Shown here in pieces: positions 53,071-54,362 of a DNA stretch of 64,000 nt. The notes beneath the pieces were generated by a model that was given only the letters and a program-made list of their open reading frames with translations, did not search any database and was not told the DNA's origin. The DNA comes from Escherichia phage vB_EcoM_PTE-Eco15. The first letter of the stretch is position 1. Every line of letters begins with the position of its first letter. The DNA lies in sequence record PQ352352.2; one strand, written 5' to 3'. Position numbers and translations under genes: made by a program.

Positions 53071-53544
53071 ATGTTATTGACTGGCAAATTATATAAAGAA
53101 GAAAAACAGAAATTTTATGATGCACAAAACGGTAAATGCTTAATTTGCCAACGAGAACTAAATCCTGATGTTCAAGCTAATCACCTCGACCATGACCATG
53201 AATTAAATGGACCAAAAGCAGGAAAGGTACGTGGATTGCTTTGTAATCTCTGCAATGCTGCAGAAGGTCAAATGAAACATAAATTTAATCGCTCTGGTTT
53301 AAAGGGACAAGGCGTTGATTATCTTGAATGGTTAGAAAATTTACTTACTTATTTAAAATCCGATTACACCCAAAATAATATTCACCCTAACTTTGTTGGA
53401 GATAAATCAAAGGAATTTTCTCGTTTAGGAAAAGAGGAAATGATGGCCGAGATGCTTCAAAGAGGATTTGAATATAATGAATCTGACACCAAAACACAAT
53501 TAATAGCTTCATTCAAGAAGCAGCTTAGAAAGAGTTTAAAATGA
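53071..53544 (+). CDS. 49: Endonuclease VII (Holliday junction resolvase)
   Basis: 157 aa; zinc/His-Cys region CLICQREL...HLDHDHELNGPKAGKVRGLLCNLCN matches T4 gp49. Confidence 0.9.
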   Translation: MLLTGKLYKEEKQKFYDAQNGKCLICQRELNPDVQANHLDHDHELNGPKAGKVRGLLCNLCNAAEGQMKHKFNRSGLKGQGVDYLEWLENLLTYLKSDYTQNNIHPNFVGDKSKEFSRLGKEEMMAEMLQRGFEYNESDTKTQLIASFKKQLRKSLK

Positions 53545-54362
53545 ATGTAGTATATAAACTATCATTTATTAATAGAATTAATGCTAAAACCCCGCCATAT
53601 TATTACATTGGAAGTAAAACTAATTGCACTTTTGACGGAACGAATATTATTGATAAAAATGGTAAATTTTATTATTCGTCTTCGTCATCTTCCGAATTTC
53701 AAAAAGCCCTGTTGAAAGAAACGCCGAAAGTTGAAATATTATATTTTCAATTAGTCGGAGATGAACAAATAACTAGCATTGAAGCTGAATTTCAAAAGAA
53801 TATAGAAAAAGATGTATGGAATAAAGAGTATTTTAATTTAGCATATGCTGATGGTCAATTTACAACGTACGGTGTTTCTCCTTCTAAAGAAACTAGAGAA
53901 AAGCAATCAATAACCATGATTAAAAGAAATCGTAATAAAGGCAAAAATCATGGATTTTATGGAAAGCATCATACTAATTTAGCCAGAAAGAAAATATCAG
54001 AAGCTTCTAAAAAATACTGGAAAGAAAATCCGCATCGTGGATTTTCGCATACAAAGGAAGCTAAAATTAAAATTGGAATTTCATCTTCTATCAGGCATAA
54101 AGGAAGTGGAAATCCGATGTATGGTGTAAAACCTTGGAAAACTCCGAGAGCAATTAAATCTGGTACTTGTATATTATGGTTAAAATACGCAGAAATTTTA
54201 TATGATTATTTAAGTCCAGATTTTAAAAGTAAATCATCTATTTTTGCGGATTTAAACTTACCAAAATTTAGAATTGATAATTTCATCAAAAGGTTTAAAA
54301 TGGGTTGGAACCCATATTTAGACGAAGAATTTCAAAAGGATAAATTAGAATTATGTCTTTAG
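53541..54362 (+). CDS. GIY-YIG homing endonuclease (free-standing, between 49 and nrdD)
   Basis: 273 aa; GIY-YIG VYKLSFIN...PYYYIGSK; NUMOD3 repeats GKHHTNLARKKISEASKK and GFSHTKEAKIKIG; overlaps both neighbours. Confidence 0.7.
   Translation: MNVVYKLSFINRINAKTPPYYYIGSKTNCTFDGTNIIDKNGKFYYSSSSSSEFQKALLKETPKVEILYFQLVGDEQITSIEAEFQKNIEKDVWNKEYFNLAYADGQFTTYGVSPSKETREKQSITMIKRNRNKGKNHGFYGKHHTNLARKKISEASKKYWKENPHRGFSHTKEAKIKIGISSSIRHKGSGNPMYGVKPWKTPRAIKSGTCILWLKYAEILYDYLSPDFKSKSSIFADLNLPKFRIDNFIKRFKMGWNPYLDEEFQKDKLELCL

Follow-up and report, generated by a model that had tools for sequence, protein, structure and literature searches.

I-TevI, the enzyme of the td intron, is the archetypal modular GIY-YIG endonuclease. 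SegH and mobC, which Sandegren et al. are said to have described in 2005, are reportedly free-standing endonuclease genes located at the nrdD/nrdG junction. Seg and mob endonucleases and the I-TevII intron are all known to target the nrdD/nrdG operon (PMC2988022), and SegG is listed as an active GIY-YIG enzyme that is inserted between genes 32 and 59 and has gene 32 as its target (PMC2988022, Table 1). The subject of this work is a 273-amino acid (aa) open reading frame (ORF) that separates gene 49 from nrdD in a stretch of 64,000 nucleotides (nt) of Escherichia phage vB_EcoM_PTE-Eco15 (PQ352352.2), hereafter called the window. The ORF appears to be a free-standing homing endonuclease gene (HEG) of the SegG branch of Seg-type GIY-YIG enzymes. 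I propose that it is one half of a mobile cassette, the other half being the diverged first 222 nt of nrdD, and that this cassette probably homes into the 5' end of nrdD in phages devoid of the HEG. The gene itself, which already has generic annotations in GenBank, is uncharacterised but otherwise an ordinary selfish gene of the T4-like phages; literature searches returned no paper on it or on any gene between 49 and nrdD.

The closest characterised relative of the HEG protein is T4 SegG (gene 32.1), with which it has C-terminal motifs in common. Both genes are free-standing, promoter-less, co-oriented with their neighbours and located directly upstream of a conserved DNA-metabolism gene. They differ in locus (49/nrdD for the HEG, 59/32 for T4 SegG), in presumed target (nrdD versus gene 32) and in the size of their products, since the HEG protein has 273 aa including an inserted NUMOD3 region whereas T4 SegG has 210 aa and no Pfam NUMOD3 match. 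A metagenomic phage has a SegG orthologue, P0004, at the classical segG site (between gp59 and gp32); the HEG, being located at 49/nrdD, is therefore a SegG paralogue at a new locus. I-TevII resembles the HEG in its nuclease superfamily, in its invasion of nrdD and in its patchy occurrence among T-even phages. However, I-TevII is intron-borne, at nrdD codon 179/180, whereas the HEG is free-standing and, lying outside the reading frame, can do without an intron; no sequence similarity between the HEG protein and I-TevII is detectable (E ~1). SegH and mobC, the latter an HNH enzyme, lie on the other side of nrdD from the HEG. The HEG constitutes a third selfish element at the nrdD region, beside the I-TevII intron and the mobC/segH site.

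The gene 49-nrdD junction

The window is part of a T4-like phage genome, and the region considered here matches about 700 T-even phage records. An earlier note on this DNA had described a 273-aa ORF wedged directly upstream of nrdD and overlapping both the stop of gene 49 and the start of nrdD; the ORF list and the sequence agree with this description. The features of the locus are the following (window coordinates):

53071..53544, + strand: gene 49 (endonuclease VII; Pfam Endonuclease_7 and Endonuc-dimeris), the left flank of the HEG
53541..54362, + strand: putative free-standing SegG-like homing endonuclease gene (HEG), 273 aa, ATG start, from the ORF list
54353..56170, + strand: nrdD, intron-less, 605 aa (Pfam NRDD, 7e-170, and Gly_radical)
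54353..54574, + strand: recoded nrdD 5' segment, codons 1-74 (nt 1-222), which travels with the HEG
56167..56637, + strand: nrdG, directly abutting nrdD (Pfam Fer4_12 and Radical_SAM)

Reading of the junction sequences shows that the HEG ATG and the gene 49 TGA share the tetranucleotide ATGA, and that the last 10 nt of the HEG overlap the start of nrdD, whose start codon is embedded in the 3' end of the HEG. The ribosome-binding site of nrdD likely lies within the 3' end of the HEG too. In T4, T2 and RB69, gene 49 is joined straight to nrdD by an uninterrupted junction, which in T4 consists of the same ATGA that the HEG start occupies in the window. The HEG has taken over the nrdD translation start region used in T4 and supplies a new one for nrdD. 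The gp49 protein is 100% identical in the window and in T4. On the other side of nrdD, the window has neither mobC nor a segH-type gene at the nrdD/nrdG junction, while in T4 the two genes are separated by mobC.

A search for a dedicated late or middle promoter detected no TATAAATA promoter motif within 14 kb, and sigma-70-like matches occurred only at background frequency. The HEG is a promoter-less cassette within the 49-nrdD-nrdG transcription unit, and fits in this respect the pattern known for segG, segF and segC (PMC2988022). Its GC content is 29.0%, versus 35.2% for the window. Since databases already contain the exact 273-aa protein, in a cluster that has 82 members at 90% identity, and since the gene is found in 48 phage records, the ORF is not a chance one.

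A diverged nrdD 5' segment accompanies the HEG

The 48 records (about 42 distinct genomes) belong to two genera; in all of them the HEG lies between gene 49 and nrdD, with 97-99% nt identity, and one truncated copy exists in addition to these full ones. About 93% of the related phage records have the same operon without the HEG. Presence and absence of the gene are thus polymorphic at one site, and its spread is sporadic. The product is labelled 'homing endonuclease', 'hypothetical protein' or 'NUMOD3 domain-containing DNA-binding protein' in the records, once 'SegG' and once, wrongly, 'HNH'.

The homology between the window and T4 stops exactly at the gene 49 stop and does not resume at the nrdD start codon but only at window position 54575, that is, at nrdD nt 223, from which point identity is 96%. 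The first 222 nt of nrdD accordingly concentrate 85 of the 143 nt differences from T4, and the first 73 residues of NrdD 29 of the 33 aa differences. The sequence of this segment goes with the presence or absence of the HEG. Among phages that carry the HEG (the window, MLP2 and the Mosigvirus ST0), nrdD nt 1-222 are 96-100% identical; among HEG-less phages (T4, T2 and RB69), they are 94-98% identical; between the two classes, identity falls to 62%. The remainder of nrdD is 92-97% identical in every comparison, and gene 49 DNA simply tracks taxonomy (97.5-98.5% within Tequatrovirus, about 80% to Mosigvirus). Moreover, the recoded allele was found at 90% identity or more in only 49 records, namely the 48 with a full HEG and that of phage OLB35, which is described below. 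Its GC content is low (28.4%, versus 36.7% for the rest of nrdD and 34.2% for the T4 version of the segment). The identities obtained segment by segment, together with the low GC content common to the HEG and the segment, therefore designate the HEG together with an nrdD 5' end of foreign type as the transferable unit.

Comparison of the window, a Tequatrovirus sequence, with ST0 gives 97.9% identity for the HEG and 100% for nrdD nt 1-222, versus 80.4% for gene 49. The element is closer between the two lineages than its flanks are, as expected from horizontal spread, and the cassette has crossed the genus boundary almost unchanged. That the whole nrdD-nrdG region entered ST0 together with the HEG was considered and rejected, because HEG-less RB69 is equally similar to Tequatrovirus there. 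The recoded segment likely covers what would be the target of the enzyme in HEG-less phages.

Domains of the HEG protein

The HEG product consists of a SegG-like nuclease, followed by a NUMOD3 repeat region and then by a SegG-like C-terminal module:

53541..53870, + strand: predicted N-terminal nuclease domain, GIY-YIG-like, aa 1-110 (Y5, R12, Y22-I23-G24-S25-K26, Y44, S47, E81, N99)
53877..54152, + strand: linker with NUMOD3-type repeats, aa 113-204 (Pfam NUMOD3; family profile)
54126..54332, + strand: C-terminal SegG-like module, aa 196-264 (PWKTxRA ... GWNPxLDxEF; weak phmmer stretch to T4 SegG)

When the protein was compared with a local set containing all T4 Seg, Mob and I-Tev proteins, the best match was SegG, with 40% identity over aa 1-126 (E 3e-26 by BLASTP; 83 bits by phmmer). 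A second phmmer stretch, against T4 SegG aa 133-204, is weak (8.7 bits, E 5e-4 in a 10-protein set). PHROGs assigns the protein to family 7504, 'homing endonuclease' (1.4e-34). Twelve positions are invariant over 19 homologous N-terminal domains: Y5, R12, P19, Y22, G24, S25, K26, Y44, S47, E81, N99 and A103. The GIY and YIG strand motifs are both present (VVY5KLSF and Y21-Y22-I23-G24-S25), the YIG being in register with Seg-type as well as I-TevI-type alignments, and in both reference alignments E81 and N99 fall on the invariant Glu and Asn (E75 and N90 in I-TevI). Profile comparison by hhalign with T4 SegA-F-type domains gave 82% probability and an E value of 1e-5, with YIG, Y-x-G-S, Glu and Asn in register. 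The AlphaFold model is confident for aa 1-105, and the alpha/beta fold of GIY-YIG domains was recovered.

Several results weigh against assigning the protein to the GIY-YIG enzymes. The Pfam GIY-YIG model (PF01541) gave no match at E<=1, and Pfam recognised NUMOD3 (PF07460) alone (E 5.5e-8, 33 bits versus a gathering cut-off of 20.4, best stretch aa 130-153). The hhalign match to I-TevI-type GIY-YIG domains is weak (29%), no counterpart of the catalytic arginine R27 of I-TevI could be aligned, Foldseek found no match in the PDB, and AlphaFold has low confidence in the C-terminal half. As for Pfam, T4 SegG is itself without any match while T4 SegB matches PF01541 at 2.3e-6; the negative result therefore reflects the coverage of the model and not the absence of the domain, PF01541 being a model that does not cover the SegG branch. 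Annotation that relies on Pfam misses the nuclease domain of this whole branch. Likewise, the aligned T4 SegA-F set has no invariant arginine, so that the missing R27 counterpart is a trait of the Seg branch. Of the GIY-YIG/NUMOD3 label proposed in the earlier note, the NUMOD3 part is upheld by a Pfam score above cut-off, while the GIY-YIG part fails by Pfam and rests on remote homology; an alignment of the catalytic residues, whose absence the note had said would refute its reading, recovers the tyrosines, E81 and N99 but not R27.

The NUMOD3 linker probably binds DNA, and the family profile matches, in the middle of the protein, the DNA-binding domain of I-TevI (1i3j, E 5e-5). The C-terminal module, which the alignment also reveals in the SegG orthologue P0004 and in the protein P0002, presumably contributes to target recognition.

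Scarred, decayed and distant copies

Degenerate and lost copies, of the kind left by a cycle of invasion, decay and loss, are represented by two Mosigvirus genomes and one metagenomic contig. Phage OLB35 (MH992122.1; locus 1480-1700) has no HEG, and its nrdD begins with ATGAATGTAGTATATAAACTA, corresponding to codons 1-7 of the HEG (MNVVYKL), and continues in the same frame with the recoded nrdD allele (95.5% identity over nt 22-222). OLB35 thus bears a natural in-frame HEG deletion scar that gives NrdD a chimeric N-terminus. In phage FL18 (PP400780.1; locus 3497-4988), aa 1-201 of the HEG protein are joined to the final ~19 residues of NrdD, and nrdD is gone. A second Seg-type GIY-YIG/NUMOD3 gene, of 276 aa, precedes nrdG in this phage; it displays the canonical SegA-E motif set and weak Pfam matches to SegE_GIY-YIG and NUMOD3, whereas the HEG belongs to the SegG branch. 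FL18 looks like a collateral deletion between two endonuclease genes.

The third case is contig L011 (SRR27536177_201122; positions 2188-3180), whose backbone is nearest to that of the Proteus phage Pm5461 (Bragavirus), to which both gene 49 and the body of nrdD show 74% identity. The order of genes is gene 49, a 55-codon ORF, an HEG homologue and a complete nrdD. The 55-codon ORF is the native 5' end of nrdD, 77.6% identical to Pm5461 nrdD, so that the insertion junction falls inside nrdD, at about nt 165. The HEG homologue has 58% protein identity to that of the window, and a stop codon divides it into pieces of 50 and 222 aa. Over its first 171 nt, the complete nrdD shows 71% identity to the recoded allele of the window but only 61% to Pm5461. 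The endonuclease and the nrdD 5' segment therefore travel together in very distant lineages as well.

Other relatives of the nuclease domain lie after gene 5, inside uvsX and beside a DNA polymerase fragment, and their C-terminal halves differ. One contig, L015 (SRR24234330_2275, 2029-4656), carries a SegG-like protein of 288 aa (P0017) between a RecA_N-type uvsX fragment, which has a weak Hint match, and a UvsX C-terminal fragment; this arrangement suggests that uvsX is split there, or interrupted by an intein or intron.

The nrdD intron site

The earlier note had described T4 nrdD as split by a group I intron, and had read the nrdD of the window as one continuous 605-aa ORF. Both statements hold: the T4 gene is interrupted by a 1033-nt intron encoding I-TevII, and the nrdD of the window is colinear with the spliced T4 gene (605 aa in both). 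The alignment to T4 suggested in that note places the insertion site between 54890 and 54891, where it is vacant:

54870..54925, + strand: vacant nrdD intron site (between 54890 and 54891; codon 179/180), T2/RB69-type intron-less allele

Over the 84 bases compared around the junction, the window is identical to T2 and RB69, while T4 exon 2 has 6 silent changes in its first 20 nt (window 54891-54910) relative to all three. Since the window carries the standard intron-less allele, its nrdD is probably open to invasion by the I-TevII intron. Rfam detected no group I intron anywhere in the window, its only matches being tRNAs, and the HEG is not a gene inside a self-splicing intron, given that its ORF lies between two complete genes and overlaps both.

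Mutual exclusion of the HEG and the nrdD intron was considered and rejected, as phages G8, Manna, fPS-2, Lv5cm and F26 carry both. In genomes with the HEG, the nrdD intron and a further endonuclease gene at the nrdD/nrdG junction may also occur, singly or together; at that junction, several of these relatives of the window carry a Seg-type gene.

Proposed homing of a two-part cassette and its alternatives

The mechanism that I favour starts from what was observed, namely homology, architecture, strict linkage, insertion polymorphism, cross-genus spread and the scarred, decayed and collateral-deletion variants, and adds to it three predictions: that the enzyme cleaves DNA, where its target lies, and that the recoded allele is immune. 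When two phages infect the same cell, the enzyme would cut the highly conserved 5' region of nrdD in a HEG-less co-infecting phage, and recombination would mend the break with the HEG-carrying genome as template. As no pairing is possible between the diverged tract and the HEG-less allele, crossovers would be confined to the homologous flanks; the HEG and the recoded segment would therefore be copied together, and the local markers of the other phage excluded. The recoded segment would probably shield its carrier from its own enzyme. The view of the earlier note that this locus reflects intron-less homing or marker exclusion beside a conserved target is supported at the sequence level. That nrdD nt 1-222 contain the target is less certain than the overall mechanism, and the junction at nt 165 in L011 is the sole pointer to a cut site, and a weak one.

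Further points pull the other way. The 48 records that carry the HEG include 6 RefSeq/GenBank duplicates and several near-clonal isolate series. Synonymous and non-synonymous changes among close copies are few and their ratios mixed (11:4, 6:3 and 4:6). The diverged nrdD tract could be hitch-hiked donor DNA that confers no immunity, and, as Seg enzymes can cleave at a distance of hundreds of bases from their own gene, the target may be elsewhere.

These last two points lead to the alternative that survives best, although I consider it improbable: the HEG would encode an active homing endonuclease with another target (deeper in nrdD, in gene 49 or at a distant site), and the 222-nt tract would be donor DNA from a distant, AT-richer lineage, brought in with the cassette at its first entry into T-even phages. 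Free-standing endonucleases do cleave hundreds to thousands of bp from their own genes (Edgell review, PMC2988022). In addition, 29 of the 74 codons of the tract are changed at the amino-acid level and not merely silently, and the GC content of the tract matches that of the HEG, both of which suggest that the tract is of foreign origin. Yet the tract is intact in 48/48 full copies and in the OLB35 scar, across two genera, even though the flanking nrdD sequence (92-97%) recombines freely; a very distant phage has a related HEG that is likewise accompanied by a related nrdD 5' segment; and the one independent insertion junction falls inside the tract, around nrdD nt 165.

Less probable still is that the HEG is an inactive relic, that is, a dead nuclease whose ORF is kept since the start and ribosome-binding site of nrdD are embedded in its 3' end, so that its clean removal would seldom be tolerated, and which spreads by ordinary homologous recombination. 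The absence of an alignable catalytic arginine and of a Pfam GIY-YIG match would fit this idea, as would the embedded nrdD start, the MLP2 copy, in which non-synonymous changes outnumber synonymous ones, and the very existence of decay and deletion variants. However, every motif residue in common with active SegG is invariant, and the full 273 codons are maintained in 14/15 of the cluster members listed and in 4/4 full copies examined. The 98-100% identity of the cassette across genera in which gene 49 is only ~80% identical points to recent, active spread. Finally, the in-frame deletion of OLB35 is viable, and therefore embedding alone does not enforce retention of the ORF. The notion of a domesticated protein that benefits its host phage, either as a DNA-binding regulator of nrdD/nrdG or as a weapon against co-infecting phages, deserves hardly any credence, since, despite the location of the gene in the operon, its translational linkage to nrdD, its NUMOD3 DNA-binding repeats and the role in immune evasion through amplification of anti-defence loci reported for SegB in one recent paper (PMC13096335), ~93% of the related phage records have the same operon without it, natural loss and decay variants speak against its being essential, and nothing ties it to a defence or regulatory context.

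Within the framework of cassette homing, L011 raises a more daring possibility, which I regard as unlikely but worth stating. The cassette might act by gene-end replacement: the endonuclease would carry with it a portable, cleavage-immune 5' copy of its target gene, so that one-sided or illegitimate repair could place the cassette even inside the nrdD frame with nrdD still functional. The layout expected from such an event is the one seen in L011, with a native 55-codon remnant, the HEG and a complete nrdD provided with an imported 5' end. If so, gene-end replacement would be a distinct, intron-free way of invading an open reading frame, and the junction at nrdD nt 165 would mark the cleavage site.

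Free-standing homing endonucleases shape gene survival in mixed infections of T4-like phages and drive local gene exchange. For the cassette described here, public genomes hold a natural series in which the cassette is intact (in two genera), deleted down to a scar, decayed beside a remnant of the target gene or associated with a collateral deletion of nrdD, and the pairing of the HEG with a version of its neighbour's first 222 bases that has diverged by 38% yields a concrete, testable prediction as to target and immunity. The added value is modest, residing in this clean natural series and in the portable recoded target segment, and will not surprise specialists.

Other replaced segments and endonuclease genes

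On the opposite side of nrdD, the T4 nrdG gene (NC_000866 42446-42916), which lies beside mobC, is 78% identical to the nrdG genes of the window (56167-56637), T2, RB69, ST0 and MLP2, the latter being 96-99% identical among themselves. T4 nrdG is a second diverged gene flank linked to a free-standing endonuclease gene. Upstream of gene 49, the interval 52036-52420 of the window, from nrdC to gene 49.1, has no similarity to T4 and contains short ORFs of 42 and 69 aa where T4 has 49.2 and 49.3; it is another replaced segment.

Elsewhere in the window, a 239-aa ORF that follows a 378-aa ORF (45102-45821, + strand) displays Seg-type GIY-YIG motifs (YYYGRH...DSYVGSG, GGEGG). It has only 25-34% identity to T4 SegA-F and may be another uncharacterised free-standing endonuclease gene. 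A segB homologue (26181-26847, + strand) is found in the tRNA cluster (tRNAs at 25569-26139 and 26853-26924) as two overlapping ORFs of 142 and 110 aa in different frames, with 81-85% identity to T4 SegB, which indicates either a frameshifted pseudogene or a sequencing error. Two further genes are nearly identical to their T4 counterparts: segC (17907-18311, - strand; 99% identity to T4 SegC) and mobD (42248-43024, + strand; 99.6% identity to T4 MobD). This brings the homing-type endonuclease genes of the 64-kb window to at least five.
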